Shown: piece after piece, positions 20,322-41,505 of the stretch
Position numbering within the stretch: the stretch's first letter is position 1
How the letters are laid out: each line of letters begins with the position of its first letter
NCBI GenBank assembly: GCA_030679995.1
Contig: JAUXSK010000018.1
Span: 121,492-185,491, forward strand
DNA length: 64,000 bases
Direction: 5' to 3'
DNA from: Candidatus Moraniibacteriota bacterium
GTDB taxonomy: Bacteria > Patescibacteriota > Minisyncoccia > Moranbacterales > UBA2206
Notes under the pieces: model-generated
What the model was told of the DNA's origin: nothing
What the model saw: only the letters and a program-made list of their open reading frames with translations
Databases searched by the model: none
Made by a program: the position numbers and the translations under genes

Positions 20322-20358
20322 GGACATAGTCTGAAGTTTGAAAAAATGTTTAAGAGGA

Positions 20359-20490
20359 CTATGATCCGCGCATTGAGATGAAATTTAGAAAGAATTGATT
20401 GGTCGCTTGCGTTTGCGCGGGGAGTCGAATGGCGAAACCGGTTTAGACCGAAAAGTTGCAAGACTTTTCAGCTTGGCCGGTTTTTTATTT
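20359..20490 (+). ncRNA. Conserved structured leader RNA, copy A, with an intrinsic terminator (candidate riboswitch/attenuator).
   Basis: About 85% identical to copies B and C. It has a long-range helix CCGCGCA/UGCGCGG, a conserved GGGGAGUCGAAUGGCGAAACCGG, and a long terminator hairpin followed by UUUUUU 34 nt before the GT2 start. Confidence 0.6.
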
Positions 20491-20523
20491 GCGGCAATTG
20501 GATTTTTCAATAAATGAAACCTG

Positions 20524-25124: not shown

Positions 25125-25129
25125 CCATT

Positions 25130-26806
25130 ATGGCCCGATTTTTTAAAAAAATCAGCGCGTCATTCCGCGAAAACATACTGCCGGTCACTTTGATCCTGGC
25201 GGCTTCTTTCAGTCTGGCGAGTTTCCTTTTTTTCTATTTGGACGGACAACAAAATACCACCTATTTCGACGCGCAATCCCATCTGAATATGTCCCGTAAA
25301 ATCGTGGACAATCTGAATCCCGGTCTGGGCCAACTCGGCGGTTTGTGGCTGCCGCTTTTGCACTTGCTGATGGTGCCGTTCATCTGGAGCGATTTTATGT
25401 GGCGTTCCGGCTGGGCAGGGGCTTGCGTTTCAATGCCGGCTTTCGTCCTGTCGGTCTATTTCGTTTTCAAGACCGTCGAGTTTCTTTTCCGCGATCGGAC
25501 GGCGGCTTTTCTCGGAGCTTTGGTATATATGGCCAGTATGAATATGCTTTTGCTCCAGAGTATGGCGATGATGGAGCCGCTATTTAATCTGACGATCATC
25601 GGCAGTATCTACTATCTTTCCCGTTGGGCCCGGACGGATAATTTAGCGGATCTGTCCATCGGGGCTTTCTTCGTTTTTTTGAGCACACTGACCCGCTATG
25701 AAGGCTATGCGGTTCTGGCGGCATCCGCCGCCGCCGTGCTCATCGTCACTTTCATAAAAAATTTCAACGCACGCCACTGGTATCGGATCGTGGAAGGCAA
25801 ATTCCTGATCTTTATGACACTGGCGTCTTTTGGCGTCTTACTGTGGCTGGCCTACTCGTTGGTGATTTTCGGCGATCCGTTGCATTGGACTCATCCTAAT
25901 ACTCGGGATGTGTCGGCGGTTATTGAAACCGTTCAAGATGGAAATCCGGCCGGACTTTTGCGCGGGGATCCCACGGACTATTACCGCCACGATTTATCCA
26001 GGGCGCTTCTGACATTCTGGTGGACCGCGGCCATCGGTAATGGTCTGATAGTTTTTTTAGCGGGCATAATAGGCTTCCTATCACTCCTGTGGTTTTGCGT
26101 GAAAAATAGCCGCTATGCCTATCTGTTCATTCCGGCCGTGCTGATTTCTGTCGCATTCCCGCTGTTCATCATAGCGCTGATGTATTTTGGACAGGTTTCG
26201 CTCTTGCCACCATTCCTCGGTTTCACCGGTATCTTCGACAAGGGGAATAATCTGGCCGACGAAGCCGGCATCCGTTACACTCTCGCGATGCTGCCTTTCG
26301 TCGCGATTTTTATGGGCTGGCTGGCCGCGGGCGGAGCCTATCGGAAAATCACCATCCTCCTGCTCATCGTTTTCCAAACAGGCTCCTTTTTTTTCGGTCC
26401 GCTGTTTCTGACCTATGATCTTTCCTTGAAATGGAAAGGCGTGTATGGACAGGAAAACCGTTCGGTGGAATGGTTCAAGAAAAATTATTCCGGCGGCCTC
26501 ATCCTGGAGAGCGCGTTGTCCCACGAGGCGGAGATGTTCCAGAACGGATTGGCATACAAGAACTATATCCACGAAGGGACGGGCCACTATTGGGAGGAAT
26601 CTTTGAAAAACCCGGTGCGCTACGCGACTTGGATAATTATGAACAAGAGCGCCAAGACCGACACGTCCGGCATTTGGGGGCAAGATATCTTGACCGACAA
26701 ATTCCGCGACTCGAAGATCTTGCGGAACAATTTCAATCTGGTTTATGACGACGGCAAAATCCTGATTTACAAAATAAAGTCCGGCAAGGATTTGCTCCGT
26801 TCTTGA
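25130..26806 (+). CDS. GT-C fold membrane glycosyltransferase (ArnT/PMT-like, about 12 TM).
   Basis: Polytopic N-terminal domain with a first extracytoplasmic loop carrying DAQSHL, plus a soluble C-terminal domain. It lies next to the DPM1-like GT2 that would make a lipid-linked donor for it (inference). Confidence 0.5.
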   Translation: MARFFKKISASFRENILPVTLILAASFSLASFLFFYLDGQQNTTYFDAQSHLNMSRKIVDNLNPGLGQLGGLWLPLLHLLMVPFIWSDFMWRSGWAGACVSMPAFVLSVYFVFKTVEFLFRDRTAAFLGALVYMASMNMLLLQSMAMMEPLFNLTIIGSIYYLSRWARTDNLADLSIGAFFVFLSTLTRYEGYAVLAASAAAVLIVTFIKNFNARHWYRIVEGKFLIFMTLASFGVLLWLAYSLVIFGDPLHWTHPNTRDVSAVIETVQDGNPAGLLRGDPTDYYRHDLSRALLTFWWTAAIGNGLIVFLAGIIGFLSLLWFCVKNSRYAYLFIPAVLISVAFPLFIIALMYFGQVSLLPPFLGFTGIFDKGNNLADEAGIRYTLAMLPFVAIFMGWLAAGGAYRKITILLLIVFQTGSFFFGPLFLTYDLSLKWKGVYGQENRSVEWFKKNYSGGLILESALSHEAEMFQNGLAYKNYIHEGTGHYWEESLKNPVRYATWIIMNKSAKTDTSGIWGQDILTDKFRDSKILRNNFNLVYDDGKILIYKIKSGKDLLRS

Positions 26807-26830: not shown

Positions 26831-26871
26831 TGTGGATAGTTGAATATTGATAGAACGCCATACTTTGAAAG

Positions 26872-27009
26872 GCTATGATCCGTGCATTGAGATGAAATTT
26901 TGAGAGAGTTGATTGGTTGCTTACGTTTGCACGAGGAGTCGAATGGCAAAACCGGTTTGAACCAAAAAGTTGTGAGACTTTTTGGTTTAAGTCGGTTTTT
27001 ATTTTTTTT
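26872..27009 (+). ncRNA. Conserved structured leader RNA, copy B.
   Basis: Same motif as copy A. P1 carries a compensatory change (CCGUGCA/UGCACG versus CCGCGCA/UGCGCGG). The terminator stem ACCAAAAAGU/ACUUUUUGGU also covaries. U-run. Confidence 0.6.
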
Positions 27010-27057
27010 CTTTTTTTAGTCAGCTTCACCTAACTTTTTAATGGAATATTTTTTTCC

Positions 27058-29145
27058 ATGGTTTTTAATTATAAAATATTTATTATAGCTTTTGTTTTGA
27101 TCCTCTTTTTTATAGGGGGATTCAATATTTATTTTTCAAGAAAAAATATTGTAAAAAACAATCAAGTATCTGTCGAGCAATCAGATATATATCAAAAAAT
27201 AATAAATGAAGATATAAATAAATTAGAGCAAAAAACTGCCTTGACGGGCAAGATATATGTCGATGATCCTAATATCCCAGCGCCCACCAACCAGTGGTTC
27301 AGCTCAGTGATATTTGAAAAGACATCGCAACCTATATTCGCTTATCCGATGGCTGTGAAAATGAATAATGATGGGTTTGGGTTTTCCTATCCATCGGTTG
27401 TTTCAACGCAAGATACTGTTTTCGCTTCGTATAAATCTGATTTGAAAGTAGTTTTTCAAAAAAATGAGCTTGTTTCTAGTGTTTCATCTTTTGATGATAT
27501 GTCAGTCGGTGTTTTGCAAAAAAACGGAGAAAATACCATTTCAAAACTTAAAATTACGCACGGATCTCCTTTCGTATATATTTCGGTGTTGCCAGGCGAG
27601 TCTTTTAATATCCAATCAGAAGAGTTGATTTTAATGGATAAAAGTGCGGATTATTTTGTGTTTGCGTCTGGTGGAAAATTTTTCGCATTTTTCCCATCTT
27701 TAAATGAAATGTCTGTGAAAAAAAATGATGATCACTCGATTACCGTTTCCAATGTCCGCAAAGAAGCTCTTATTTCAATCGCTGTTTTGCCAAATCTTGA
27801 ATGTCTGGATATTTTCAGCCAGTATGCATTGGATCCGATAATTGGCACAAACGTTGATTTTAATGTGACGGATAATCGGATCAGCACTAAATACGAAATT
27901 GTTACGAAGAGCGGAGGAAAAACACTTTTTGCTTTGTTGCCAAACAGTTACGATTCTTTTGAACAACAGTTGAAAAATCAGAATCCAATTGGGGAGTATG
28001 ACACACTCAGGGGTAAACAGTTATTGTACCAGGGAAGGATCTTTGATTTTTCAGAGGAAGCTGGGCCTATTCCACGACAACTGGAAGTGTCATTTTTATC
28101 GCATTCTGACAAGGAAAATTTACGTAATTTTATTAAGACAGATGCAGATAGGTTAACAGTCACTGAGAATGATACCTATTTTGTTGGAAAAAAACTTTTT
28201 GCTATGGCGAATGTCTTGGATATAGCGGAGCAGCTTGGTATGGAAAGAGAATCGGATATTTTGAAAATAAAATTAAAAACTGAGTTAGAAACATGGAAAA
28301 ATAATACGCTGGCTGGCGGACAGCAGAAAAAATATTTTTACTATGATCCGATAATCAAAGGAATCGTGGGGGAGACGGCTAGTTTCGGCAGTGAGTTATT
28401 TAATGATCATAATTTTCATTACGGATATTTTATCTATGCGGCAAGCATACTCTCGCGCTATGACAATAAATATCTGTCGGATAACCAAACTTTTATCAAT
28501 CTGCTGGTGAAGGATATCGCCAATAATGACCGCGATGACAAAACATTTCCGTATCTGAGGGGTTTTGATGCTTATGAGGGACATAGTTGGGCTTCAGGCT
28601 TTGGGATGTTTGCTGACGGCAATAATCAGGAATCAAGTTCCGAGGCAGTCAACGCATGGTACGCATTGTATTTGTGGAGCGATATTATCGGAAATAAAAA
28701 TCTCAAGGAGACGGCGGAATATTTATATTTTAAGGAATCATCAAGCGCATTGGATTATTGGCTCAATATTGATAAGGGGGATTTGCGTTTTGAAAATTTC
28801 CAACATTCCATGGTAGCGCTTGTTTGGGGTGGAAAATTGGATTTTGCGACTTGGTTCAGTCCGCATCCAGAGGCTATGCTGGGAATCCAATTGATTCCGT
28901 TCAGTCCCGCTAGCGGTTATTTGGGGCGTGATGCGGGGCGTGTCCAGGAAAATTTGTCGTCAGAAAACGCTTTTCAGAGTCCCGCACTATTCAAGGATTA
29001 TCTGGCGATGTACCGGGCGTTTTATGATGTTACCGGAGCAAGGCAAATGATAGATAAATTGAAGCCAACAGACATCGATAGCGCGAATTCAAGGAGTTTT
29101 ATGGAGGCTTGGTTGCTTGTTCTCGAAAATAAGGAAAATCATTAA
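27058..29145 (+). CDS. Membrane-anchored GH81-like endo-beta-1,3-glucanase.
   Basis: N-terminal TM helix. NDHNFHYGYFIYAAS and NNQESSSEAVNAWYALYLW resemble the GH81 catalytic-region motifs (DHHFHYGY; E-x-S-S-E pair) as I recall them. Confidence 0.55.
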   Translation: MVFNYKIFIIAFVLILFFIGGFNIYFSRKNIVKNNQVSVEQSDIYQKIINEDINKLEQKTALTGKIYVDDPNIPAPTNQWFSSVIFEKTSQPIFAYPMAVKMNNDGFGFSYPSVVSTQDTVFASYKSDLKVVFQKNELVSSVSSFDDMSVGVLQKNGENTISKLKITHGSPFVYISVLPGESFNIQSEELILMDKSADYFVFASGGKFFAFFPSLNEMSVKKNDDHSITVSNVRKEALISIAVLPNLECLDIFSQYALDPIIGTNVDFNVTDNRISTKYEIVTKSGGKTLFALLPNSYDSFEQQLKNQNPIGEYDTLRGKQLLYQGRIFDFSEEAGPIPRQLEVSFLSHSDKENLRNFIKTDADRLTVTENDTYFVGKKLFAMANVLDIAEQLGMERESDILKIKLKTELETWKNNTLAGGQQKKYFYYDPIIKGIVGETASFGSELFNDHNFHYGYFIYAASILSRYDNKYLSDNQTFINLLVKDIANNDRDDKTFPYLRGFDAYEGHSWASGFGMFADGNNQESSSEAVNAWYALYLWSDIIGNKNLKETAEYLYFKESSSALDYWLNIDKGDLRFENFQHSMVALVWGGKLDFATWFSPHPEAMLGIQLIPFSPASGYLGRDAGRVQENLSSENAFQSPALFKDYLAMYRAFYDVTGARQMIDKLKPTDIDSANSRSFMEAWLLVLENKENH

Positions 29146-29154
29146 TAACATAAT

Positions 29155-31215
29155 TTGAAAACATTTATGCAACAACTAATTAAAAATAAAAACATATCCA
29201 GGATAGCGGCATACCTGTGGTTGGTTTTGGGTGAGATGTCTACGCTTGCGGCGATTATCGCTGTCGGATGGTTTTTGATTGGTTATTATGCGCATTTCGA
29301 ATTTTTGCAAACTGGCTATCAGGATTGGATTTATCATGCCTTTCGAGTTCAGGATATTTCTCAGTTCGGTATCGCTTCCTGGGATCATATTTGGAGCGGC
29401 GGTATAAATCATTGGCGAGCGTTTCAATATATTGAGCATATGCTTACTTATGGCGTGGTAAACCTAACTGGAATGTCTATTACGCATGCCATGCTTTGGA
29501 TATCGATAGTTGTTTTTATCGCATTACGTGTTTTTATGTATGGGGTACTCAGGTATTTGAAAATAAGCCGCTTGTTTAGCGCTGTCGCTGTTATTGTTTC
29601 ATTTGCATTTTCTCAACAGTGGACGGCCCTAAAGGAGTTTTCTATTTTTGTGGGTTTTATCGTGGTTCCGTTATATGTGTTGCTTTGGATTGCGACTTTA
29701 AAATCAATGCGCTATGTTTTTTTGCTTGCCGCTATCACCGGAGCGTCTTGGTCGATACACCCTGTCGTAGGTTATAGTATGTCCGGTATGCTCCTATTTC
29801 TCGTGCTTGCTAATAATCTCAAAAAGGACATAAGAAAATTGATGCTGGTTGTATTAGTATATTTCGTCAGTTCAATGCCATTCACAATACCGTATTTTTT
29901 TTCGGGATACAGCGTCAGTAATTTATTTTATGTTACGCCGCAGTTTTTGCGAATGTTGCTTGTTCCTGAATATTTTGGATTGAGCCTGCTCTATTTTATT
30001 TTGCTTGCTGTGAGTTGGGTAATTATGGTTGTAAAATCAAGCGAATCACCTCGCTGGGCAAAAATACTACTCTTGTATTGCACGGTTTATTTGTGCTTTA
30101 TTTATTTTGGTTTATTGGGATATTTTCCAGTTTTTATCAATAAATTTCAATTCTCGCGTGCCATTCCATTTATTGCTTTGGTATTACCTTTTTGTTTTGC
30201 TGCTTTTTTTCAGACCGCTCTTCCAAATATTCGATCGCGTATGGCGTACGCGATATTTATTGTATTGATAGCTATTGGCATTTCACAATCGATTGAAATT
30301 GCGACACGATATTCCGGTCAGCCGATAGACTCGATTCAAGACCCGGTGGCAATATATTTTGCAAACAAAGAAGTGCCATATGGAAGCATATATTTCAAAG
30401 ATGTTACTGAGGCAAGTTATTTAGGGAAAACCGGGTTGCGTTTTATAACATCGTACAATCAGCATTTATTACCCAATCCGTACTCTATGCGCTTCGACGG
30501 ACTTATGAAAACTGACATTTCTTATACTGGCGTAACGGAACGTCAGATAAAAATGATCAATGATTATAGTCTTGTTTTGGGAGTCGAATATGTCTTCATT
30601 CCTAAACTCTCTCCGCTTGTGAATGGTTTGACTGTCAGTCAAGGGGATTTTGACGCTCTATTTGAAAATTTGGGAGAAGTCAATGTGCCTTCGGATGTTT
30701 TTGCAGTTTTGCGTAATCGCCAGCCGATTGCAAATGCGTATGCTTTCGATAAAAATAATATGGATAATTTTCTTCGTTTTTCGGAGATACCCAAACCGAC
30801 ATTGCAAATTGATTCATATAAGCTGTGGGATGACGAAATCAGTCGTATGGCGCAATTGATACGGTCAGGACAAATGAAATCATTGCCGATGAGCTTTGTT
30901 TGGCCAAATAAACTTGTGGTGGATGCGAAAGAAATTCAAGATATGAATCAGCCAAGTTTGTTGTTAACTCAGAGTTATGATCAGAATTGGACTATAGAAA
31001 ATGAAAAGTCAGCGATTAAACCGACAAATTTGCGATTTATGTCAGTCAATCTTCCCAAGGAAAAAATTTCTGATAAGGTGGTCTTATCGAACAACTGGCC
31101 GCGTTGGCACTGGCCTATCCAATCACTCGGCCTGGTTATGATTGTTGTCACCGGAATTATTGCGATATTTCGAAGGCATAAAATAATAAATTCTACTAAT
31201 AGGACTAATTTATGA
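29155..31215 (+). CDS. Large polytopic membrane protein with a C-terminal extracytoplasmic domain and a final TM helix, function unknown (synthase accessory subunit?).
   Basis: About 10 TM helices in the first 380 aa, then a ~280-aa soluble domain, then the TM helix LGLVMIVVTGIIAIF. A 4-nt overlap (ATGA) with the downstream GT2 synthase implies translational coupling. Confidence 0.6.
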   Translation: MKTFMQQLIKNKNISRIAAYLWLVLGEMSTLAAIIAVGWFLIGYYAHFEFLQTGYQDWIYHAFRVQDISQFGIASWDHIWSGGINHWRAFQYIEHMLTYGVVNLTGMSITHAMLWISIVVFIALRVFMYGVLRYLKISRLFSAVAVIVSFAFSQQWTALKEFSIFVGFIVVPLYVLLWIATLKSMRYVFLLAAITGASWSIHPVVGYSMSGMLLFLVLANNLKKDIRKLMLVVLVYFVSSMPFTIPYFFSGYSVSNLFYVTPQFLRMLLVPEYFGLSLLYFILLAVSWVIMVVKSSESPRWAKILLLYCTVYLCFIYFGLLGYFPVFINKFQFSRAIPFIALVLPFCFAAFFQTALPNIRSRMAYAIFIVLIAIGISQSIEIATRYSGQPIDSIQDPVAIYFANKEVPYGSIYFKDVTEASYLGKTGLRFITSYNQHLLPNPYSMRFDGLMKTDISYTGVTERQIKMINDYSLVLGVEYVFIPKLSPLVNGLTVSQGDFDALFENLGEVNVPSDVFAVLRNRQPIANAYAFDKNNMDNFLRFSEIPKPTLQIDSYKLWDDEISRMAQLIRSGQMKSLPMSFVWPNKLVVDAKEIQDMNQPSLLLTQSYDQNWTIENEKSAIKPTNLRFMSVNLPKEKISDKVVLSNNWPRWHWPIQSLGLVMIVVTGIIAIFRRHKIINSTNRTNL

Positions 31216-32744
31216 GCATAAAACTATTGAAACAATACGTGCCGCACGCACGCATCACGTCCGCTAAAATTCTCAGTATGACCACAGTCTTTCTTTTGGG
31301 CGCCCCGATGGTCGTGATTTATTATGGAGCTTTTGTTTTTAATCCTGCCAATGCGGATAATGTCTTTATGTATATAATCCAGGTGGTTGCGGATATTATC
31401 GCGATTATAGCGTTGCTTGGACTTTGGGTGACGGTTCTTATGGATGTGATAACCCAGCAACATCATCGCTCGCATCATTTTGATCCAGGTGATTTTCTTG
31501 TTGAAAAAAAACCGACTATAGATATATTCGTGACTGCTATGGGTGAATCTTTAGAGACTCTTGAAGAAACTCTTACAGCAGCGATAAATATGGATTATCC
31601 GCATAACACTTTTATTTTGGATGATGGTAAATCCGATGCTTTAAAGAAGTTTGCACAATCATTGGGCGTGATATATGTTGTTCGTCCAGACAGGAGGCAT
31701 GCTAAGGCAGGGAATGTCAATAATGGACTAAGATTCAGCAAAAGTGAATTTTTCGCAATTTTTGATGCGGATCAAGTGCCTAAAAAAGATTTTATTACCA
31801 GGTTGTTGCCATACATGAAAGATTCGAAAATGGCAATGGTCCAATCTCCCCAATATTTCGCCAATACGCATTCTTTCATTGCGGCTGGAACATCACAGGC
31901 CCAAGAAGTTTTTTATAAATATGTTTGTCCGGCAAAAAATATCTCTAACTCAGCTTTTTGTGTCGGGACGAATGTTGTTTTCAGGCGTAGCGCCATCGAA
32001 GATATCGGCGGGATAGCCCGCAACAATTCGGAGGATATCTGGACATCATACCAGCTTCATGAAAATGGCTGGCACACGATTTTTGTGAATGAGGTATTGG
32101 CAATCGGCGAGGCTCCGGCGACGGTAGTTTCATATTTCAAACAGCAAAGGCGCTGGGCTAAGGGAGGGCTTTCGATGCTTTTTACGAAAAATCCGCTTCG
32201 ATCAAAAAAATTAAATCTTGATCAAAAAATGCAATATTTTATTTCCAATTCATTTTTTCTAGTCGGTGTGTCCATCTTTGTTTATGTGCTTTTTCCGATC
32301 CTGTATCTTCTCTTCGGCATCAAGCCTCTTGATACCGAAAATGGCATCGTTTGGGTACTTCATTACGTTCCTTATTTTGCTTTGTATTATTCTTTGACGT
32401 ATTTATTTTTAGGCAGTATTCGGTTGGAAACTCTTTCGACAGCATTGGCAAGTTTTTACCCATATCTGCTTGGACTTTTTTCAGCTCTTTTCGATACGGA
32501 GCAAGTATGGGTGGCAACGACTTCAAGAAAAAATACGGAAGACGCTTTTATGAAATGGGCGTGGCCGCATGTGTTTATAATTTTTCTTTCTCTGTTTAGC
32601 CTGGTTGTCGGATGGTATAATCCATATAATTTTTGGACGACAGTATTCAATACGGCATGGGTTGTTTTGAATGCCTATTTGCTCTTTTTGTTTATAACTG
32701 GAGAAAAAAGAATTGTTAAAAATAGAAATAATATAATTCAATAA
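31212..32744 (+). CDS. Processive GT2 beta-glycan synthase (cellulose/curdlan/chitin-synthase-like).
   Basis: ILDDGKSD, FDADQVP and QQRRWAKGG (QxxRW) motifs; N- and C-terminal TM bundles. Confidence 0.75.
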   Translation: MSIKLLKQYVPHARITSAKILSMTTVFLLGAPMVVIYYGAFVFNPANADNVFMYIIQVVADIIAIIALLGLWVTVLMDVITQQHHRSHHFDPGDFLVEKKPTIDIFVTAMGESLETLEETLTAAINMDYPHNTFILDDGKSDALKKFAQSLGVIYVVRPDRRHAKAGNVNNGLRFSKSEFFAIFDADQVPKKDFITRLLPYMKDSKMAMVQSPQYFANTHSFIAAGTSQAQEVFYKYVCPAKNISNSAFCVGTNVVFRRSAIEDIGGIARNNSEDIWTSYQLHENGWHTIFVNEVLAIGEAPATVVSYFKQQRRWAKGGLSMLFTKNPLRSKKLNLDQKMQYFISNSFFLVGVSIFVYVLFPILYLLFGIKPLDTENGIVWVLHYVPYFALYYSLTYLFLGSIRLETLSTALASFYPYLLGLFSALFDTEQVWVATTSRKNTEDAFMKWAWPHVFIIFLSLFSLVVGWYNPYNFWTTVFNTAWVVLNAYLLFLFITGEKRIVKNRNNIIQ

Positions 32745-32755
32745 GATAAAATAAT

Positions 32756-33544
32756 ATGCCAAGGACAATATTCGCAGAAATCAAACAATGGTTAATAAAT
32801 AGCGCGTATTTCGTCGCAGTCTTTGTATTGGCCTTTGGAATCGCGACACAAGCATTGGTACGGCGAGTGAATGGTTATGAGGCGACCAAGAAGCCCCTAT
32901 TTTTTTCTATAAACAAGGAAAATATTATATTGTCAAATTCTGTTGCTGGAAGAATCGAAAATGTCGCAGTTTCAACGGGTGAACATGTGCACAAAGGGGA
33001 TCTGCTTGTTAGCATAGTGGATGATTCTATGACGCAGCGCATCATTGCTTTGAAGGGATTGGCTAATAATAATATTTCCGCTGAAACGGAATTGGAAACG
33101 CTCAAATCGCGCGTGGGGGAATATGAAATTCGTGCGCCTCGAGACGGGGTGATTTATTACATTTCGGCGGCTGAAGGAAGTTATTTAAATGCCAGTTCTC
33201 CGATTTTGACTATGTTTGCGGATAGCAATGTAAAAATTATGGGTATGGTAAATCAGGAACAATATACAAAAATACAACAAAACAAAGAAATCGATGTCTA
33301 TAGCCCTCGATTTGAGCAGGTGTATAAAATAATTTTTACAGGTGTCGGGCGCGTACAAGCAGCAACAAATTATGAAGAGAGTAAGTTCGAAATCCAATTC
33401 CGTTTTGCAGATGAAGAGAATGGCGCAGCTTTCATCGAGGGTGAGCAACTTGAAATGATAGCCAGAAATGATACCGATGATGCTGCTTTAAAGCCGTCTT
33501 TTCGCATCGCTAAATTGTGGAATAATATGATTTTAGGGGATTAA
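32756..33544 (+). CDS. HlyD/biotin-lipoyl-like membrane-fusion-type protein with a single N-terminal TM.
   Basis: TM anchor then GRIENVAVSTGEHVHKGDLLVSI, a lipoyl-like hairpin typical of MFPs. Confidence 0.5.
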   Translation: MPRTIFAEIKQWLINSAYFVAVFVLAFGIATQALVRRVNGYEATKKPLFFSINKENIILSNSVAGRIENVAVSTGEHVHKGDLLVSIVDDSMTQRIIALKGLANNNISAETELETLKSRVGEYEIRAPRDGVIYYISAAEGSYLNASSPILTMFADSNVKIMGMVNQEQYTKIQQNKEIDVYSPRFEQVYKIIFTGVGRVQAATNYEESKFEIQFRFADEENGAAFIEGEQLEMIARNDTDDAALKPSFRIAKLWNNMILGD

Positions 33545-33588
33545 ATCGCTTTATTTTCAGCCATTTGCCAGATTTCCGATTGTCTGAT

Positions 33589-33597
33589 ATTATCTGG
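33589..33597 (+). promoter_or_regulatory. Extended -10 (TGaTATTAT) about 39 nt upstream of leader RNA copy C.
   Basis: Same -10-to-element spacing as in copies A and B (38-42 nt). Confidence 0.4.
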
Positions 33598-33635
33598 GCA
33601 ACAGCAGAATCTTAAAAATAGCATACTTAAAAAGA

Positions 33636-33770
33636 TTATGATCCGCGCATTGTGATGAAATTTCGAGAGAGTTTCTTGGTCACTTATGTTTGTGCGGGGA
33701 GTCTAATAGTGAAACCGGTTTGGGCCGAAAAGTTGTGAGACTTTTCAGTTTGGACCGGTTTTTTATTTTT
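33636..33770 (+). ncRNA. Conserved structured leader RNA, copy C.
   Basis: Same motif. P1 has a G-U variant (UGUGCGG). The terminator is followed by UUUUUUAUUUUU. It lies 134 nt before the first TasA-like gene. Confidence 0.6.
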
Positions 33771-33903
33771 GGAAAAACAACCCAATTTTAATATATATAA
33801 AGGTCGAGGCGGAAACTGCCTAAAGTTTCAAAATTTTTATTCCGATTCATAAAATAGGAATAAAAAATAATTTTAATCAGCGTTTAATAAATAATAAAAA
33901 ACT

Positions 33904-35088
33904 ATGAAAAAAATGATCAAAAGCGGACTCATCGTGCTCGCGGTCGCTGCAATTGCCGGGTATGGAACATACTCTTTCTTTAGCGACACAGAAACGTCTT
34001 CGGGAAACAATTTTACCGCAGGAGAAATCGACCTGACCGTGACCAATACTGGCAGCGCTACGGACGGCGCTTGTACGTTTGATAATACGCCAGGCGGACC
34101 GATTTTTAATTGTACTGATGTGAAGCCTGGAGACAATGGTGAAAGCACATTGAACTTCAACCTTACAAGCAATCCTGCTTGGGCTTGTATGTATGTGGAC
34201 AATGTTGTTGATAGTGATAATGGGTGCAACGATCCGGAATTGGCTGCTGAATCAGTTTGTACGGAAGATGGAAATGGTGAATTAGACAACGCTCTAATGC
34301 TGACTGTTTGGGTTGATGACGGCGCTGGAGATGGCGGAACAGCATGTAATAATATCCGAGACGGATCAGAAGAGGTAATTATAGGCAATCAGGCGTTAAG
34401 CTCTTTTGTGTTGCCAACGGGAGGCTATGTCCTTCCTATTTCAGACGCAAGTGCTGATTCTATGATGACCGCTCCAGTCCAACCGGGTGACCATTGTGTC
34501 GGTGTCGCGTGGAGTGTCGATCCAACAACAGGAAACGAAGTGCAGACAGATAAATTAGGTGGTGATCTGACCTTCTATGTTGAACAGGCAAGAAACAATG
34601 ATGGATTCACATGCGCGGCACATTTCACGCCTGCGGAAGGAGTGCAAACATTGACTCTTGAAAATGAGATACAGAATCCGACAGGACCTTGGACACCGAT
34701 TACCGGTGACGGGATACAAGGAACATTAGTTTGGCAAGGAGATGGAGATACATTTGATTACACTCTAACTGCGCAAGGATTACCTGCTAATTCATCATAC
34801 AGTTTGATTTATTATGCTGATCCTTACCCAGGTAATAATCCAGGTAAATTAATCGGAACACACATGACCGATGGAGATGGCGAAATCGATGCTGCTGGAA
34901 ATCCAGATTTAGGAATGGATTTGCCAGATCCTGCAGATGCTAACTTCGGGACTGGTGCTAAGATTTGGTTGATTCCAAGCAGTGCATATGATGCTGCGAG
35001 CAGTAGTATCATTTCTTGGACACCAGATACTACTACCTGGTTGTTCGAAGGTAATGTTTACATCCATTACAACGATACGAATAACTAA
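33904..35088 (+). CDS. TasA/camelysin-like secreted protein with a SipW-cognate signal peptide (paralog 1).
   Basis: MKKMIKSGLIVLAVAAIAGYGTYSFFSDTETSSGNNFTAGEIDL matches the SipW-cognate class motif. A paralog-conserved DVKPGDNGE...AWACMYVD block follows. Confidence 0.75.
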   Translation: MKKMIKSGLIVLAVAAIAGYGTYSFFSDTETSSGNNFTAGEIDLTVTNTGSATDGACTFDNTPGGPIFNCTDVKPGDNGESTLNFNLTSNPAWACMYVDNVVDSDNGCNDPELAAESVCTEDGNGELDNALMLTVWVDDGAGDGGTACNNIRDGSEEVIIGNQALSSFVLPTGGYVLPISDASADSMMTAPVQPGDHCVGVAWSVDPTTGNEVQTDKLGGDLTFYVEQARNNDGFTCAAHFTPAEGVQTLTLENEIQNPTGPWTPITGDGIQGTLVWQGDGDTFDYTLTAQGLPANSSYSLIYYADPYPGNNPGKLIGTHMTDGDGEIDAAGNPDLGMDLPDPADANFGTGAKIWLIPSSAYDAASSSIISWTPDTTTWLFEGNVYIHYNDTNN

Positions 35089-35199
35089 ACAAGATGTAGT
35101 CTTTTACTTCCGCTCATTTTCAAAATGGGCGGGAGAATAAAGATCTAAGGATAATTAATTACTTGCATAAGTAAGTACCTAAGTAAGTATTAAAACAAT

Positions 35200-36543
35200 A
35201 TGATGAAAATATTGAAAAGCCTTGCAATCGTCATTGCCATCGCGGCTATCGCGGGGGGAGCATCCTATTCGTTTTTCTCTGACACGGAAATGTCAGCTGG
35301 CAATATGTTCACGGCGGGAGTTATTAATTTAAAAATTGATAATTCAAGTTATGCCATAGATTCTGTTATTCCTGGGTTTGATGATCCGGTGGGAGATTTG
35401 GTTGCGAGTCCGCACAATACCTGGTCCTATGACAACCTCACCGATCAACTATTTTTCAATTTTGAAGATTTGAAACCGGGGGATATAGGGGAAGACACGA
35501 TCGGTTTGCAGGTTTCCAGTAATGACGCTTGGGCGTGTATGAAGGTGGACATAACGGACACTCCTGAAAATGATTTGATAGATCCGGAAGCAGAAGCAGG
35601 GGACAAGACAGAAAAGAACGGGGAACTTCAAGATGAGCTAAGTTTCGCTTTTTGGGCGGATGACGGGGACAATGTATATGAAGATGAGGAAGTCACGCTT
35701 GATGATGGCAATCCGGGCATATTTTTAGAGGGAAAAGCCGCAGATATTTTCAAAAATAAATTTATTACGCTGGCTGATTCAATGGCTGATGTGTGGCCTG
35801 GCGGCAATGGCCGTCCGATAATCGCGGGTGAAAATTATTATATTGCTAAGGTTTGGTGCTTTGGAAAATTGACTCCGGCACCTGTCTCATCCGGAGACGG
35901 AGATCCTCTCCATCGCGGAACTGGATTTTTATGTGATGGAGATTCAGTTTCTAGCGCGTCTCAAACGGATGGGATAAAAGCGGACGTGACATTCTACTCT
36001 GAGCAAGCTAGAAATAATCCGCACTTCGTCTGTAATCAGCAGGAGTGCTTGGCTGATACTGTCTATACTTCAGAAGTCGAAAGCAATGTCCAAGGTACGC
36101 TCAATGATGGCACTCCTGTGATTGATCCGGATCGGACTGACCCAAGTGAGGCTAATGGTCCGCCAGATTGGGTTAGTGGAACTGGCACGAACTTCTATAG
36201 TCTGGGTAAAGGTGGGACAGTGACTCTGAAATTTGCCGATGTCGTCGGTAATGGGAATGGAAATGACCTCGCTGTCTATGAAGCGACCAACGGGCGCGAT
36301 TCATATCCGCTGGAAAGTGCGGATGTGGAAGTGAGCCTCAATGGAAAGGCTTGGTATCCTGTTGGCATAGCCACAAGCGAACCTGGTGGGGATGGCGTTT
36401 CATATTTTGATATATCTTCCACTCCTCTTTCAATGTTCAAATATGTAAGACTGACTGATTCGACTGATTTCTCTTTGCACAACAGTATCTCCGACGGATT
36501 TGATTTGGACGCGGTTGGTGGTGTCTACGGAGAGTGCGAATAA
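35200..36543 (+). CDS. TasA/camelysin-like secreted protein (paralog 2).
   Basis: MMKILKSLAIVIAIAAIAGGASYSFFSDTEMSAGNMFTAGVINL, then DLKPGDIGEDTIGLQVSSNDAWACMKVD. Confidence 0.75.
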   Translation: MMKILKSLAIVIAIAAIAGGASYSFFSDTEMSAGNMFTAGVINLKIDNSSYAIDSVIPGFDDPVGDLVASPHNTWSYDNLTDQLFFNFEDLKPGDIGEDTIGLQVSSNDAWACMKVDITDTPENDLIDPEAEAGDKTEKNGELQDELSFAFWADDGDNVYEDEEVTLDDGNPGIFLEGKAADIFKNKFITLADSMADVWPGGNGRPIIAGENYYIAKVWCFGKLTPAPVSSGDGDPLHRGTGFLCDGDSVSSASQTDGIKADVTFYSEQARNNPHFVCNQQECLADTVYTSEVESNVQGTLNDGTPVIDPDRTDPSEANGPPDWVSGTGTNFYSLGKGGTVTLKFADVVGNGNGNDLAVYEATNGRDSYPLESADVEVSLNGKAWYPVGIATSEPGGDGVSYFDISSTPLSMFKYVRLTDSTDFSLHNSISDGFDLDAVGGVYGECE

Positions 36544-36592
36544 TTATTGTTAAATATGTGATGTCCATCGCGTGCTATAAGAATACATTCTA

Positions 36593-37675
36593 ATGAATAA
36601 GATTATAACAAAATTTTCTAGAAACCTGATCATAGCCGTTTTTATTTTAGCTATGGGGGGATATGAGACGTATGCTTGTGTCGTGCAAGGCAAGGAGCTT
36701 TTTTGGCATAACTTTCCCGATAAGAAATTGGATTTGGAGATAAGCTATGCCGGATATTATAATAAGGATGCCGACAATCATCCCAATGCGGGAAGCTGGC
36801 GGCAACAGGACCTGACTACGCAGAAATTTTTTGATTTCTATGATATCAAACCGGGCGATTTCGGTGAGGGCACAATCGGCTTGCGCCTCAAGCACCAAGA
36901 TGCTTGGGGTTGTGCCACCATCCGTCCGACCGAAAATGATGATAATGGCTCCACTGAACCGGAATTGTTCGAGGATGCGCAAAATGTGGCAGCTGATAAA
37001 TGGGATGGCGAGTTGGCGAAAAAAATTAATTTTAAGATCTGGGCCGATGTTTGTTCGAAAAGATATGTGAAAGCGGGCGATAATGTTTTTCAGCCTGATT
37101 GCGATCGGCTTATAACCAGCGGTACCGGTCCGTTGCAGGAGCTTGACTTAGTTTTGGCTGACACTGAAAATCCGAATGTTTTCAACGGGAATATGGGACC
37201 GCTCAAAAAAAACAAAAACTATTATATAGGCGTAGATTGGAATATCGATTCGGATGTCGGCAATATCATCCAAACTGATTCATATAAGGCAGACATAACT
37301 TTTTTTGTCCAGCAGTCGGTTGGCAACCAGGACTTCCGTTGCGCTGATATCCGTAATGATGATCCGGATAAATGCTCGGATGGCGCCATACGCAATTGTT
37401 ATTCAGGTGATTTCGATAAAATCGATATCGGCATCTGTCGAAGCGGGACTGAAGCTTGCGTTCAAGGAAACTGGGGAAATTGTTCCGGAGAGATTTTTCC
37501 TGACAAGGAAATCTGCAAAGACAATCTGGATAACGACTGTGACGGGCAAATCGATGAAGGATGCCCGCCAATATGCCAGCGCGTGAGTGATTGCGACGAC
37601 CACAATTCAAAAACCGATGACAACTGCGTGAATAAAGAATGCGTGCATACGGAGAAAAAGAATTTAAAACGGTAA
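36593..37675 (+). CDS. Divergent TasA-like paralog 3 with a C-terminal cysteine-rich MopE-like/EGF-like metal-binding domain.
   Basis: DIKPGDFGEGTIGLRLKHQDAWGCATI is conserved with paralogs 1 and 2. C-terminus: CSDGAIRNCYSGDFDKIDIGICRSGTEACVQGNWGNCSGEIFPDKEICKDNLDNDCDGQIDEGCPPICQRVSDCDDHNSKTDDNCVNKEC. Confidence 0.65.
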   Translation: MNKIITKFSRNLIIAVFILAMGGYETYACVVQGKELFWHNFPDKKLDLEISYAGYYNKDADNHPNAGSWRQQDLTTQKFFDFYDIKPGDFGEGTIGLRLKHQDAWGCATIRPTENDDNGSTEPELFEDAQNVAADKWDGELAKKINFKIWADVCSKRYVKAGDNVFQPDCDRLITSGTGPLQELDLVLADTENPNVFNGNMGPLKKNKNYYIGVDWNIDSDVGNIIQTDSYKADITFFVQQSVGNQDFRCADIRNDDPDKCSDGAIRNCYSGDFDKIDIGICRSGTEACVQGNWGNCSGEIFPDKEICKDNLDNDCDGQIDEGCPPICQRVSDCDDHNSKTDDNCVNKECVHTEKKNLKR

Positions 37676-37698
37676 TACATAAAATAATATGAAAAGAT

Positions 37699-38355
37699 AT
37701 GACGGATAAAATTTTAAAAATTTTAAAAAATCTCATTTGGACGGCAATCGTCGTATTCCTGATTTTGATCGGTATAACATTCATTCCGATCAAAGGAAAT
37801 TACAAGGTTTATACGGTACAATCAGGTTCGATGGAGCCAGCTATCCATACCGGCAGTTTAATTTTTGTTAAAAGTCAGGAAAGTTACAGTGTAGATGATA
37901 TTGTAACGCGGGCGACCAAAGGCTCAAGAGCGACTGTCACGCATCGTATCATTTCTAAAAAAACGGAAGGTAGCAAGGTAATATTTGAAACCAAGGGAGA
38001 TGCTAATGAGGATCCAGATAGGGAAAGCGTGAGTCAAGATACGATTATTGGTAAGAAATTTTTTCAAATACCATATATCGGCTATCCAGTCGGATACGCT
38101 CGGACGATGCCGGGATTCATCCTTCTTATAATTATCCCAGCCGTAATTATCGTTTATGAAGAGATTAGGAAAATCAAAGAAGAAATCGTGAATATCTGGA
38201 AAAAGAAAAATGGGAAAGAAAATTTGCTTGTGGAAGATAATTTATCGGAAAAAAAATATACCCGAGTGTTAGCAGAGAATAATATCACGAATATAGGTCT
38301 TGAAACCAAAGAAGGCCTTATTAAGAAAGAAAAAATCAGTCGGAAAAAAGGATAA
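37699..38355 (+). CDS. sipW: Signal peptidase I, SipW type (S26B, archaeal/eukaryal-like).
   Basis: VQSGSMEPAIHTGSLIFVK carries the catalytic Ser. There is a C-terminal TM helix and a K/E-rich tail. Confidence 0.8.
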   Translation: MTDKILKILKNLIWTAIVVFLILIGITFIPIKGNYKVYTVQSGSMEPAIHTGSLIFVKSQESYSVDDIVTRATKGSRATVTHRIISKKTEGSKVIFETKGDANEDPDRESVSQDTIIGKKFFQIPYIGYPVGYARTMPGFILLIIIPAVIIVYEEIRKIKEEIVNIWKKKNGKENLLVEDNLSEKKYTRVLAENNITNIGLETKEGLIKKEKISRKKG

Positions 38356-38360
38356 TTTTT

Positions 38361-38828
38361 TTGAAGAGGTTGCATAGTCTGTATAAAAAACATTCAAATA
38401 TGAAAGCGATTTTAAAATCATTGACACGGATTTTCATCGTAACCTTTCTGGTTGTTTTTGTCTTTGATATGAATCGTATTATCGGCACTGATTCTTCTTT
38501 TAGTGATATGGAATTGTCTTCAGATAATTCGTTTGTTGCTGGAAAGTGGGAGGAAAAAACAGATGTAATACTCAAAATAAAAGAGCTTAGATTGCCTGAA
38601 GAAAAACAGGACACGGTAATTTCTCCTACGATAAGCGAGCAAGTTGATAGTCCGCCATCTGAGCCATCTTTGCCTGTGGATGATGATATTCAGGACCAAG
38701 AAGAGGTTCCTGATGAAGAGGTTCGGAACGTTCTTGGTATTGAAGATCCGGTAGGGCAGGAGCAACCTTTGTCATCGGATGAGTCGGACTCTCCGACTGT
38801 GGATGGAGAGGGACAGGAATCATTGTGA
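38361..38828 (+). CDS. Small secreted acidic protein with a SipW-cognate-like motif (TapA-like accessory?).
   Basis: TM/signal region then GTDSSFSDMELSSDNSFVAGKWEE, followed by a D/E/P/S-rich tail. The start may be the TTG at 38361 or the ATG at 38400. Confidence 0.5.
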   Translation: MKRLHSLYKKHSNMKAILKSLTRIFIVTFLVVFVFDMNRIIGTDSSFSDMELSSDNSFVAGKWEEKTDVILKIKELRLPEEKQDTVISPTISEQVDSPPSEPSLPVDDDIQDQEEVPDEEVRNVLGIEDPVGQEQPLSSDESDSPTVDGEGQESL

Positions 38829-39015
38829 TAAACACTCGCAATATAATCCAGGATATCTATTCGCTGGGAAATGGATCGGATAGGGCTGCTGTAACAATCG
38901 GCAATCAATGTCGGTTTTTTTGTCTTTTCCGCTTTTGTTGACAAACCAAGCCGGTTGGGATAGCTTGTAAACAACTAAAAAAATCAAAATACAACTGAAA
39001 TAGAGGAGGTGCAGA

Positions 39016-40209
39016 ATGAAGGGAATTGAAAGGGTTTATTGTGATTTCGCGATCCGGACCGTTTTGGGTGCCGCATTGGATTTGATGCAAACCCCCGTGG
39101 CGGAGGTCCTGAAAAAGCAAAAAATCGGCAAAAGAGACACATTGGGAATGGATGCCGTGCCTGAAAACAGCATCCGTGAAGCGGTCGACGGTTTTTTTAT
39201 CAATCCGGTGTTGGTGACGGAGGAAACGGACCACATCACCAGGAAACACTGGCCTGAGGATTCCGATCCCGACAAACAGCCGTTGATGTTCTTTTCCGAT
39301 CCATTGGATCGGTCGGCCAAATTCGGGCGGTTCCTGAGGACTTTCCCGGACATTTGCGGGAAAAGTGAAATCGATTTGGTCGGTGATGTCATCGCTTGCC
39401 CGGAGGCGAACAGCTATTGGGAGAAGGAGATCGACAACATTTCGCCGATTATGATTTCCGGCGCGACCATCTCACTCACTTGCGTAAACCGGGGTAACAT
39501 AGTCGTTTCCGTGGTGATGAATATTATGACCCGGACGATTTTTGTCGCCTGTCTCAGTGGCACCTATGCGTTCTGTGTCCGTGGAGATGTGGATCAGATA
39601 GGCAAGATCCACTCCACGATCAATTTGAAAGCGGTTGAACGGAAGGGGAAAAAAATCAGCTTTTGTTCCAGCAAAAATAGATGCGAGAACCGGGAGGATT
39701 TTCTCAGATTCGTTTCTTTCGTCGGTAAAACCGGCTATGAGGAAAACCTGACCAATAGCGGTATCTTGCCGGACTATCGATCGCATTTATATCATGATTG
39801 TCCCGGTGGTCCTTCCAGAATCCTGTTTCTTTCCGATTTCCAGTCTGCCAAATCGCCGATCGGGTTTATTATGGCTAATGGGGAAAAAATCGGTGAATGG
39901 ATCCATTGGTTGGCGTATGTCAAATTCGCCAAAGATATCCAAGGCAAAAACAGCTTCAATATCTATGAGGTAAGTTTGGCGCAAACATTGGCTAAAGAGA
40001 GTATTCTGATGTCCCCGTTACCGCCGTATTCGATTTTCCGGCACAAGAGCAACAGCGCCAGAAGTTCGTTTTTGAATATCAGCCGTCTGCGCGATTTGGA
40101 CCGGCCGAGCAATTTCCGATCGACGGTCATCGTGACCAAGGCGGACAATATGCGGGTCAAAAACATTATGTACGGCAAAGGCTTCCATGATGTCAGCGCG
40201 TCGCTTTGA
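39016..40209 (+). CDS. Hypothetical 397-aa protein with possible IMPase/FBPase-superfamily metal-site motifs.
   Basis: VLVTEETDH followed 25 residues later by FFSDPLDRSAKF, compared with the IMPase pattern EE...DP(I/L)DG(T/S).F. No C-terminal WDxAAG-type motif is seen. The SD is GAGGAGGTG. Confidence 0.4.
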   Translation: MKGIERVYCDFAIRTVLGAALDLMQTPVAEVLKKQKIGKRDTLGMDAVPENSIREAVDGFFINPVLVTEETDHITRKHWPEDSDPDKQPLMFFSDPLDRSAKFGRFLRTFPDICGKSEIDLVGDVIACPEANSYWEKEIDNISPIMISGATISLTCVNRGNIVVSVVMNIMTRTIFVACLSGTYAFCVRGDVDQIGKIHSTINLKAVERKGKKISFCSSKNRCENREDFLRFVSFVGKTGYEENLTNSGILPDYRSHLYHDCPGGPSRILFLSDFQSAKSPIGFIMANGEKIGEWIHWLAYVKFAKDIQGKNSFNIYEVSLAQTLAKESILMSPLPPYSIFRHKSNSARSSFLNISRLRDLDRPSNFRSTVIVTKADNMRVKNIMYGKGFHDVSASL

Positions 40210-40332: not shown

Positions 40333-41505
40333 CTAATCCGCGGAGTCGATCAATTCCAGATTGCGCGTGTGCCAATTCAGGACGGCTGTTTTTTTGATCA
40401 TCAACTTGAACATATCAGGATGTTCCTTTTCGATGACTTCCGAAGCGTATTGGCTCAAAAATTGCGATTTCAATTCAGCTCTGGCTTTGTCCACGCCGAT
40501 TTCCGAATAGGGGGCCGAGGTCAGGAGCAAAAAACCGTCTTTGGGAATCATCCCGCGTTCCATATTCGATTTTATGATGCTAGCCGCGGTTTTGATCGGT
40601 CCGCTGATGTCGGGGCTGTAGGGGCCGATGATGAGCGCGATATTGGGCACGTGCAGAAAATCGAAACCGCGTCCGATGCAGATGATCCATTCGCGATGCA
40701 CCGAATCCAGTTCCAGATTGCGGTGGGCGTTGCGGATATCGGAGATATGTTCGATGTTGCCGGTGACCAATGGCAATAAATCGCGCAACACTTGGTCGGG
40801 CATATCCGGATACATCGCGCGCAATTTGTTGGTCAGAAATTCTTTGGAAGAATCCGTGCTTTCGGCCAGATTGAAAATTTCCTTGTTTTCCCCGTCGTGG
40901 AGGATCATCGCGTCTTCGTCCGTTTCGATCCCGCAAATCAGCGGATAGACGGCCTGGTGGTTTTGGCCGAAAATATATTCCGCTTGTTTTTTGACTTCAA
41001 AGACATGTTTGATGGCGGCATCGCAATCATATTTGAAACCGGCGCAGCCGCGGTGTCCATCGCCTTTGGAATAGTGATAGGTGATGATCATCAACACCCG
41101 GCGGGAATCTTCGATGGCGGCGTTGACCGTGTTATACAGCACTTCACCTAGATACGGCCAGCCAAGATTGAACATCCCGCCGATATTGCGGAAAGGTTTG
41201 ATGATGCCCAATGGGGTCTTGGTCGCGTAGGGCAGATGGATCCGGCCATCCATACATTTCAAGGCGATTATCATCGTCGGATGTTTAGCGGAATATCTTT
41301 TGCGAGAAAGATAGGCTTCGGAAGAGCAATAGGCGTTGGAATGTTTCTTGCTTAAGTCCAAGAGCCAGTCGATCCGTTCCTGGATCGGCATATGGTAGAT
41401 GTCCGCCTCGCGGGCGTCGATATATTTGTTGATTTCTTTCATATACGTGGATTGAATAATATTATTGCCTGCTTTAAAGTATAGTTCCTGGTCCAGCAAA
41501 GTCAA
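40333..41505 (-). CDS. Hypothetical 390-aa protein with a beta-carbonic-anhydrase-like Cys/His pattern.
   Basis: MIIALKCMDGRIH (C84-x-D86-x-R88) and ITYHYSKGDGHRGCAGF (H151-x-x-C154), compared with the beta-CA pattern CxDxR...HxxCG. The rest of the protein is unrecognised. Confidence 0.4.
   Translation of the reverse strand: MTLLDQELYFKAGNNIIQSTYMKEINKYIDAREADIYHMPIQERIDWLLDLSKKHSNAYCSSEAYLSRKRYSAKHPTMIIALKCMDGRIHLPYATKTPLGIIKPFRNIGGMFNLGWPYLGEVLYNTVNAAIEDSRRVLMIITYHYSKGDGHRGCAGFKYDCDAAIKHVFEVKKQAEYIFGQNHQAVYPLICGIETDEDAMILHDGENKEIFNLAESTDSSKEFLTNKLRAMYPDMPDQVLRDLLPLVTGNIEHISDIRNAHRNLELDSVHREWIICIGRGFDFLHVPNIALIIGPYSPDISGPIKTAASIIKSNMERGMIPKDGFLLLTSAPYSEIGVDKARAELKSQFLSQYASEVIEKEHPDMFKLMIKKTAVLNWHTRNLELIDSAD

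Follow-up and report, generated by a model that had tools for sequence, protein, structure and literature searches.

What do five open reading frames (ORFs) that run in one direction between positions 33904 and 38828 of a 64,000-nucleotide stretch of a Candidatus Moraniibacteriota genome (contig JAUXSK010000018.1; the whole stretch is called the window below) build together? They encode three related proteins (P1, P2 and P3), a SipW-type signal peptidase and a small acidic protein (P5), and an earlier reading of the bare letters, here called the first-pass annotation, had taken them for a five-gene TasA/SipW-type fibre operon under one copy, C, of a leader RNA. This was borne out by matches to hidden Markov models, a fold match to the TasA fibre structure 8AUR, recurrent synteny and the retention of the leader in two other genomes. 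The operon is of genuine TasA/SipW type; its branch of the TasA superfamily, that of the candidate phyla radiation (CPR) and the DPANN archaea, is very large and has hardly been studied. With moderate confidence we read it as a riboswitch-controlled operon with which a Moranbacteria-like bacterium builds a TasA-type extracellular fibre by donor-strand exchange. The analysis established which genes are present, their homology, the similarity of fold, the conservation of gene order, and the structure and covariation of the leader. The five genes are as follows (aa, amino acids).

33904..35088, plus strand, P1, TasA-like subunit, 394 aa
35200..36543, plus strand, P2, second TasA-like subunit, 447 aa
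36593..37675, plus strand, P3, TasA-core paralog with a variant N-terminus, 360 aa
37699..38355, plus strand, SipW-like signal peptidase I of the endoplasmic reticulum (ER)/archaeal type, 218 aa
38400..38828, plus strand, P5, small acidic protein, 142 aa (mechanical ORF 38361-38828)

P1, P2 and P3 were paralogs over their first ~240-280 aa (BLASTP E values of 3e-33, 3e-23 and 2e-25), and in an alignment the block D..KPGD.GE.T...AW.C, which had been pointed out before, was present and invariant in all three. P1 scored 29.3 bits and P2 a borderline 22.9 bits against PF12389 (Peptidase_M73), both above its gathering score of 22.5 bits. Against TIGR04088, the model of the SipW-cognate signal, the two proteins scored 26.3 and 25 bits, above the curated cut-off of 19 bits. 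P3 had no match to TIGR04088 at E<=1 and none to PF12389, so that the SipW-cognate signal claimed earlier for all three proteins held for P1 and P2 and not for P3. Compared with the orthologous genes at a related locus (L002; related loci are cited by such numbers), P1, P2, P3 and the peptidase had ratios of nonsynonymous to synonymous substitution rates (dN/dS) of 0.08-0.23.

Since PF12389 carries the name 'Camelysin metallo-endopeptidase', the proteins might also be read as camelysin-like (Peptidase_M73) secreted metalloproteases. We consider this very improbable, because the matched region comprises only the signal and the N-terminal strand, the invariant columns of 110 homologues contain no conserved His/Glu catalytic motif, the mature proteins have only 4-5 His, and the solved members of the family are fibre subunits (8AUR).

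The identification of the fourth gene as a SipW-type signal peptidase was upheld. It passed TIGR02228 with 113 bits (cut-off 51.85) and aligned to human SEC11A/C through SGSMEP, HR and KGD.NE, indicating a SipW-like signal peptidase of the ER/archaeal type. Its own catalytic boxes read SGSMEP, THR and GDAN, and it has two transmembrane segments and a Lys-rich C-terminal tail. As its score against the Bacillus SipW equivalog NF046067 was 113.4 bits, below the 190 bits set for that model, the enzyme is SipW-like in type and context and not an orthologue of the Bacillus protein. At several related loci (L004, L006, L010, L049, L067, L072, L073 and others) the peptidase ORF is 440-600 aa long and carries a long fused extension.

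P1 consists of a SipW-type signal, a donor-strand motif FFSDTETSSGNNFTAG, a jelly-roll core (residues ~42-240) and a beta-sandwich (~245-394) that resembles Cu,Zn superoxide dismutase (SOD) and lacks its His ligands; Pfam searches with this isolated C-terminal domain returned nothing useful. A Cu/Zn site in the SOD-like domain was considered and rejected, as no conserved His stands among the invariant columns of the homologues and mature P1 has only 4 His. In P2 both the SipW-type signal and the donor motif are canonical, and the core contains two insertions; the protein ends in a C-terminal domain of ~165 aa, for which neither a family match (Pfam on the isolated domain) nor a PDB sequence match was obtained. 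Domains of this P2 type were also found in other large CPR/DPANN surface proteins. The mature proteins are very acidic, with an isoelectric point (pI) of about 4.

The AlphaFold model of P1 (predicted local distance difference test, pLDDT, 81.8) showed two domains, with residues 1-41 disordered (pLDDT <50), as expected of an undocked donor strand. Foldseek matched this model to the TasA fibre 8AUR with a probability of 0.99, at a sequence identity between the P1 core and TasA of ~15%. A jelly-roll core like that of TasA (8AUR/5OF1) was found in the predicted models of both P1 and P3, and both cores matched 8AUR. Generic sandwiches aside, the top structural neighbours of the core were subunits of donor-strand filaments, and the best specific matches were the linear filaments 8AUR, 7PNB, 7UEG and 9H8B. 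The Foldseek scores were moderate, and for P3 the jelly-roll domains of glycoside hydrolase family 2 (GH2) scored about equally. The first-pass annotation had tied its reading to a predicted TasA fold and to a significant SipW motif; the fold was predicted, and the motif was significant in two of the three paralogs, P3 being the one in which it was not.

A profile of the family aligned to B. subtilis TasA, in a sequence identical to that of 8AUR, with an hhalign E value of 8.4e-5. In this alignment TWA/AFNDIKSKDATFASGTLDL of TasA stands opposite TYS/FFSDTETSSGNNFTAGEIDL of P1 (the slash marks the cut). The TasA donor strand comprises residues 28-38, follows the SipW cut directly and completes the next subunit (PMC9674648). 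In the TasA register, cuts are predicted after S24 in P1 and P2, A28 in P3 and S32 in P5. Together with the disordered N-terminus of the monomer model, the alignment suggests that the subunits could polymerise by N-terminal donor-strand exchange.

The same data can be read differently. The proteins may be SipW-processed surface or secreted proteins, such as adhesins or envelope proteins, that work singly or as small oligomers and in which the motif serves for recognition by the peptidase only. This would agree with the small extent of the matches to PF12389 and TIGR04088, which cover only the N-terminal ~40-80 residues; with the different adhesin-type C-terminal module of each paralog (SOD-like sandwich, family-less domain and Cys-rich tail); and with the fusion of the family core to very diverse extensions. 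However, the motif runs well beyond the predicted cut and follows the TasA donor strand residue for residue (PMC9674648), the top specific structural neighbours of the core are donor-strand filament subunits, and the monomer model of P1 leaves the N-terminus without structure. A P5 with only the strand and a P3 poor in donor features would also be hard to account for without strand complementation. We therefore regard the monomer explanation as unlikely and prefer a fibre assembled by donor-strand exchange.

P3 departs from its two paralogs at both ends. Its N-terminus reads ...GGYETYA/CVVQGKELFWHNFPDKKLDL, and this variant is kept in P3 orthologues that are 53-63% identical, indicating a maintained difference and not decay. 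A lipobox reading of TYA/C was set aside, since two orthologues have AEA/N or AEA/F at this point and lack the Cys. Core paralogs that stand directly upstream of the peptidase gene and lack the FSDTE-type donor motif were also found at three unrelated CPR loci:

L010, 12859-13740, core paralog before SipW, FSDTE-type donor motif missing
L072, 10510-11817, core paralog before SipW, FSDTE-type donor motif missing
L073, 3241-4200, core paralog before SipW, FSDTE-type donor motif missing

At the other end, P3 carries the Cys-rich domain of ~110 aa that had been noticed earlier; it measures 108 aa (nucleotides 37349-37672) and holds 12 Cys and 24 Asp+Glu. The tail contains DNLDNDCDGQIDEGC, within it a MopE/DxDxDG-like motif, DNLDNDCDGQIDE. 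D-x-D-x-D-G is a classic Ca2+-binding loop. The MopE family PF11617 has a gathering score of 27 bits, and its match to P3 spans only profile positions 15-30 of 30. P3 itself stayed below threshold; the MopE assignment of the first-pass annotation found some support at the level of the family, where 7 of the 8 tail-bearing orthologues matched PF11617 at E<=0.01 (best E 7.6e-6). The tail may bind Ca2+ or another metal; on metal binding, as on the attenuation discussed below, the first-pass annotation was over-confident.

P5 presents the opposite combination. Its mechanical ORF begins at a TTG at 38361. The ATG at 38400 gives MKAILKSL..., parallel to the other N-termini, and the gene call on an identical Logan contig begins there too; this ATG is likely the true start. 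P5 contains SSFSDMELSSDNSFVAG, which is conserved in its orthologues, and the degenerate SipW-cognate motif that had been proposed for this protein is indeed present and kept. It had no match to TIGR04088 at E<=1 and became visible only when P5 was aligned with its orthologues and P1; Pfam returned no match for P5. The protein is made up of a signal or transmembrane segment, the degenerate donor-strand motif GTDS/SFSDMELSSDNSFVAGKWEE and an acidic tail of ~90 aa that is predicted to be disordered. Predicted mature P5 has 110 aa with 31 Asp+Glu and 0 Cys, and a TasA core is absent.

Remoter relatives of P5 were reached through synteny alone. The gene after the peptidase in L002 and L026 keeps N-R-I-x-G-T...F-x-D-x-E-x-S-S-x-N-x-F-x-A-x-x-W-x-E, and in the Moranbacteria locus L003 a lamin-tail domain (PF00932, 63 bits) is joined to a motif of P5 type, ISSDSEKSEGNEFQAGEW:

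L003, 14222-14950, post-SipW gene with a donor-like N-terminus and a lamin-tail domain

Two further arrangements were seen at this position. A post-SipW gene of a Nanoarchaeia locus (L019, 11696-12310) joins a SipW-type/donor-like N-terminus to a domain like the C-terminal domain of P2, and many other loci have a SipW-motif protein of 400-900 aa after SipW.

The module is widespread. The closest relatives, with 93% identity, are annotated as 'TasA family protein [Parcubacteria group bacterium]', and others come from Moranbacteria, Woesebacteria, Campbellbacteria, Paceibacterota and further CPR groups. A profile built from 110 homologues of P1 matched 5,565 clusters at E<=1e-3 and 1,311 at E<=1e-30 among 1.84 billion representatives. 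The conserved core corresponds to profile positions 1-255 and is joined to many different C-terminal extensions. Of 80 related loci, nearly all have a SipW-type peptidase gene after a set of one to five core paralogs. Matches of Patescibacteria to PF12389 were already noted by Wang et al. 2022 (PMC9245690); beyond this survey remark, no study of CPR TasA fibres was found in the literature. The TasA-core and SipW module also appeared in archaeal metagenome-assembled genomes (MAGs) including DPANN (L014, L019, L035, L045, L054 and L070) and in Chloroflexota bins (L029 and L033). The DPANN and Chloroflexota occurrences suggest either cross-domain transfer or binning errors.

The operon is preceded by the leader RNA, copy C of which lies at the place given by the first-pass annotation, with two further copies elsewhere in the window; the three are 77-80% identical. 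A promoter-like site, the top-scoring candidate of the region, lies ~20-30 nt upstream of copy C.

20338..20500, leader RNA copy
26852..27015, leader RNA copy
33565..33593, plus strand, promoter-like TTGCCA-17-TATTAT with extended TG, sigma-70-like (consensus match only)
33615..33778, plus strand, leader RNA copy C, 164 nt

Copy C comprises an aptamer-like part (~33626-33724), a terminator hairpin (33711-33762) and a U-run (33763-33774), and the aptamer has the conserved GAAACCGG at its 3' end, a sequence that overlaps with the terminator's 5' arm. The TasA operons of L002 and L026, too, are preceded by leader copies. In an alignment of 8 leader copies, 92% of cells were paired and 18 pairs showed double (compensatory) changes, a level of pairing and covariation reached by 0 of 500 shuffles; slid controls were 35-52% paired. 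For the aptamer-closing P1 stem (a helix, not the protein P1) that would compete with the terminator, 40 of 48 cells were paired in these copies, which is suggestive and not convincing. A broader leader model, R2, gave only weak matches directly upstream of TasA (L055, L069, L004 and L056) in 78 more TasA loci, so that a firm association of the leader with TasA is limited to the Moranbacteria-like clade.

In Rfam the window copies scored below threshold: copy A had 31 bits against the cyclic di-GMP (c-di-GMP) family c-di-GMP-II-GAG (RF03169), and copies C and B had 22.5 and 18.1 bits against RF01786, the gathering scores of the two families of the clan being 40 (RF03169) and 53.5 bits. The leader and RF03169 have a core in common, UGAUCCGCG...CGCGGGGAGUC.AAUGGCGAAACCGG. 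When metagenomes were scanned with the conserved core, six matching RNAs passed the gathering score of RF03169 (41.9-47.9 bits); on this ground the description that suits the leader best is that of a divergent c-di-GMP-II-GAG relative in which the hairpin is enlarged. It is probably an ON switch, with c-di-GMP or some related signal as its probable ligand. The metagenomic scan also showed bona fide c-di-GMP-II-GAG RNAs upstream of receiver-domain and signal-peptide secreted proteins (L117, L126, L140, L145, L149 and L159); several of these contigs look non-CPR and have a higher GC content.

The other two leader copies precede polysaccharide operons. The copy at 20338 stands before an exopolysaccharide operon (20524-26806) encoding a family 2 glycosyltransferase (GT2), a flippase, two further GT2 enzymes and a PMT_2-like protein. 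The copy at 26852 stands before an operon (27058-33544) encoding a member of glycoside hydrolase family 81 (GH81), a 686-aa membrane protein, a cellulose-synthase-like GT2 and an HlyD-like protein. GH81 is a family of beta-1,3-glucanases. Together, the TasA operon and the two polysaccharide operons look like a co-regulated matrix regulon.

This arrangement bears on a further explanation, in which P1 and P2 are lattice components of a two-dimensional surface layer or sheath and not of free fibres, with P3 and P5 as anchors. CPR cells have been reported with surface layers, and a pI of about 4, as in the mature proteins here, is common among surface-layer proteins. In contrast, the best specific structural matches named above are linear filaments, and a switchable leader common to exopolysaccharide operons suits an inducible matrix better than a constitutive layer. 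We give the surface layer a small chance only and keep to the fibre.

Between P1 and P2 lie two elements, both of which the first-pass annotation had recorded correctly, a strong hairpin right after P1 and a tandem decamer just before P2. The operon ends in a terminator-like structure.

35097..35147, plus strand, intercistronic hairpin with a 13-bp core at 35107-35135
35168..35189, plus strand, tandem decamer, two copies of TAAGTAAGTA
38896..38926, plus strand, terminator-like hairpin and T-run at the operon end

The 116-nt stretch that holds the hairpin had a minimum free energy of -28.6 kcal/mol (z -4.1). The hairpin is identical in L002 and is kept in L003 (protein identity 68%) through G-U-compatible changes. 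Hairpins of -15 kcal/mol or lower followed 83 of 125 TasA-core genes (related loci L002-L081), compared with 12 of 120 random windows, a rough contrast since the random windows were mostly coding sequence. Those that follow about two thirds of the TasA-core genes in CPR operons are GC-rich and usually lack a U-tract. A terminator behind bsaA in C. perfringens leads to an abundant transcript of sipW-bsaA and also to a read-through product (PMC7395162), and by analogy with this precedent a hairpin-driven differential expression in favour of P1 is plausible. The two decamers occupy 35168-35177 and 35180-35189 with a 2-nt gap (0.04 expected by chance), the second ending 10 nt upstream of the P2 start codon; the tandem was kept only in the 93%-identical relative.

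What follows is inferred from these results, namely where the proteins are cut, that they polymerise, what P3 and P5 do, which ligand the leader binds and how the hairpin acts. Transcription would start near 33590 and give a leader of ~160 nt, in which the aptamer-like fold competes with the intrinsic terminator, and binding of the ligand would allow read-through. P1, P2, P3 and P5 would be exported and cut by the operon's own peptidase at T/S-x-S/A (here the slashes separate alternative residues), in the same register as TWA/AFNDIKS of TasA. Cleavage would free the conserved FFSDTE.S.GN.FTAG at the N-terminus of P1 and P2, where it could serve as the donor strand, enter the jelly-roll core of the next subunit and so form a shaft decorated by the C-terminal domains, the SOD-like sandwich of P1 and the family-less domain of P2. 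The hairpin after P1 would probably raise the ratio of P1 to the downstream products by partial termination or by 3' stabilisation.

A linear donor-strand polymer ends in an empty groove on one side and an unused strand on the other, so that a strand-only P5 and a donor-poor P3 would suit as end subunits. The N-terminus of TapA resembles the TasA donor strand and is thought to supply the first strand (PMC9674648). P5, with a donor-like strand and no core, may act in a TapA-like way, nucleating or capping the fibre by filling the first subunit's acceptor groove. P3, with a core and no donor consensus, may sit at the opposite end as a terminal subunit, its tail serving as an adhesive, Ca2+-binding or anchoring module.

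Several observations weigh against this scheme. The matches of P1 and P2 to PF12389 are confined to the N-terminal region, as the monomer explanation would have it, and the family profile found no match among PDB sequences. The variant N-terminus of P3 could, after all, serve as a donor strand of a specialised kind. For the P3 tail neither a structural relative nor a PDB sequence match was found, and PF11617 gave P3 20.6 bits over the whole protein and 23.2 bits over the tail alone, below gathering. P5 retrieved only itself (in a Candidatus Moranbacteria MAG) and one 81%-identical relative in sequence searches, and its dN/dS value against L002 was 0.74; it is a maintained but weakly constrained gene. 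The hairpin after P1 lacks a U-tract, unlike the terminators of the leader and the operon end, and is thus not a canonical intrinsic terminator. As to the signal, no gathering-level Rfam match to the c-di-GMP-II clan was obtained in the window, L002 or L026, and none of the window genes encodes a GGDEF, EAL or PilZ domain. The fullest form of the scheme is tentative, possible but with the odds against it: a complete, self-contained fibre system with a shaft, a groove-only end subunit whose Cys-rich adhesin tail binds Ca2+, and a strand-only nucleator of 110 aa, switched on together with two exopolysaccharide operons through three copies of one divergent riboswitch of c-di-GMP-II-GAG type.

The surroundings of the operon were also inspected. 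A recognisable Shine-Dalgarno sequence was absent from all five operon genes, whose upstream regions (33880-33903, 35190-35199, 36570-36592, 37676-37698 and 38380-38399) are A/U-rich. In contrast, GAGGAGG is present in 39000-39015, before the next gene at 39016. This gene (39016-40209, plus strand) encodes a 397-aa protein without a Pfam match, and 40333-41505 on the minus strand encodes a 390-aa protein with a weak match (27.2 bits) to the catalytic domain of carboxysome-shell carbonic anhydrase. Elsewhere in the window, a 66-nt direct repeat (48096-48161 and 55475-55540, 92% identical) flanks a surface-polysaccharide set with Wzy_C-TPR, Bac_transf and a family 4 glycosyltransferase (GT4).

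CPR bacteria, or Patescibacteria, are abundant, but most have not been cultured; those in cultivation attach to host cells, an attachment so far studied mainly through type IV pili. The TasA-core family, with its ~5,500 clusters, its almost constant linkage to a SipW of its own and its occurrence in DPANN, would thus represent a second widespread and unstudied surface-filament system. The operon described here offers a compact set of parts for it, namely shaft subunits, a donor-poor subunit with an adhesin-like tail and a minimal strand-only accessory, and the leader common to two polysaccharide operons could reveal the signal for matrix building or attachment. If the scheme holds in its fullest form, an ultra-small and probably episymbiotic bacterium would have a matrix or attachment regulon controlled by a second messenger. 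The principle of TasA assembly would be unchanged and would be extended to a new clade with new accessory parts. The main points of interest are the pair of strand-only and donor-poor accessories, the modular C-terminal domains and the leader common to the polysaccharide operons.

Among known systems, the closest comparison is the tapA-sipW-tasA operon of B. subtilis (8AUR/5OF1). Both encode a dedicated peptidase of ER/archaeal type beside its substrates, subunits with a jelly-roll core and a mature N-terminus that aligns with the donor strand, and an accessory protein with an N-terminus that mimics this strand (P5 here, TapA there), and both belong to a biofilm-matrix context, with exopolysaccharide genes adjoining. 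Where B. subtilis has one core protein, the present operon has three paralogs, each extended by a C-terminal domain that TasA lacks, and one of them (P3) is without the donor consensus and has a Cys-rich tail; the gene order differs, and a riboswitch-like leader takes the place of SinR. P5 lacks a TapA-like central domain, and its proposed likeness to TapA is one of function only, consisting in a donor-like N-terminal strand encoded beside SipW. The sipW-bsaABCRSD operon of C. perfringens and the sipW-tasA/calY operons of B. cereus also encode several TasA-like proteins together with SipW. In these operons SipW comes first, whereas it is fourth here; they are controlled by a two-component system or by SinR/SinI and contain no Cys-rich or strand-only subunit. 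The hairpin after P1 is analogous to the terminator behind the C. perfringens major subunit (PMC7395162) but has no U-tract.

The archaeal donor-strand filaments (Pyrobaculum AbpA, 7UEG; Sulfolobus threads, 7PNB; Pyrodictium CanX, 9H8B) are far more distant in sequence from the family described here, although this family also occurs in DPANN MAGs, and they were reported without a dedicated signal peptidase (PMC9245690). As for the leader, its intrinsic terminator overlaps the 3' end of the aptamer as in c-di-GMP-II-GAG RNAs (RF03169, clan CL00127), from which the window copies differ by their scores of 18-31 bits and a hairpin insert of ~34 nt. Chaperone-usher pili, with initiator and terminator subunits such as FimH and PapH, follow the same logic at their two ends, where one special subunit has a groove and no usable strand and another starts or ends growth. 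Their proteins and assembly machinery are unrelated to those described here, and the resemblance is one of analogy only.

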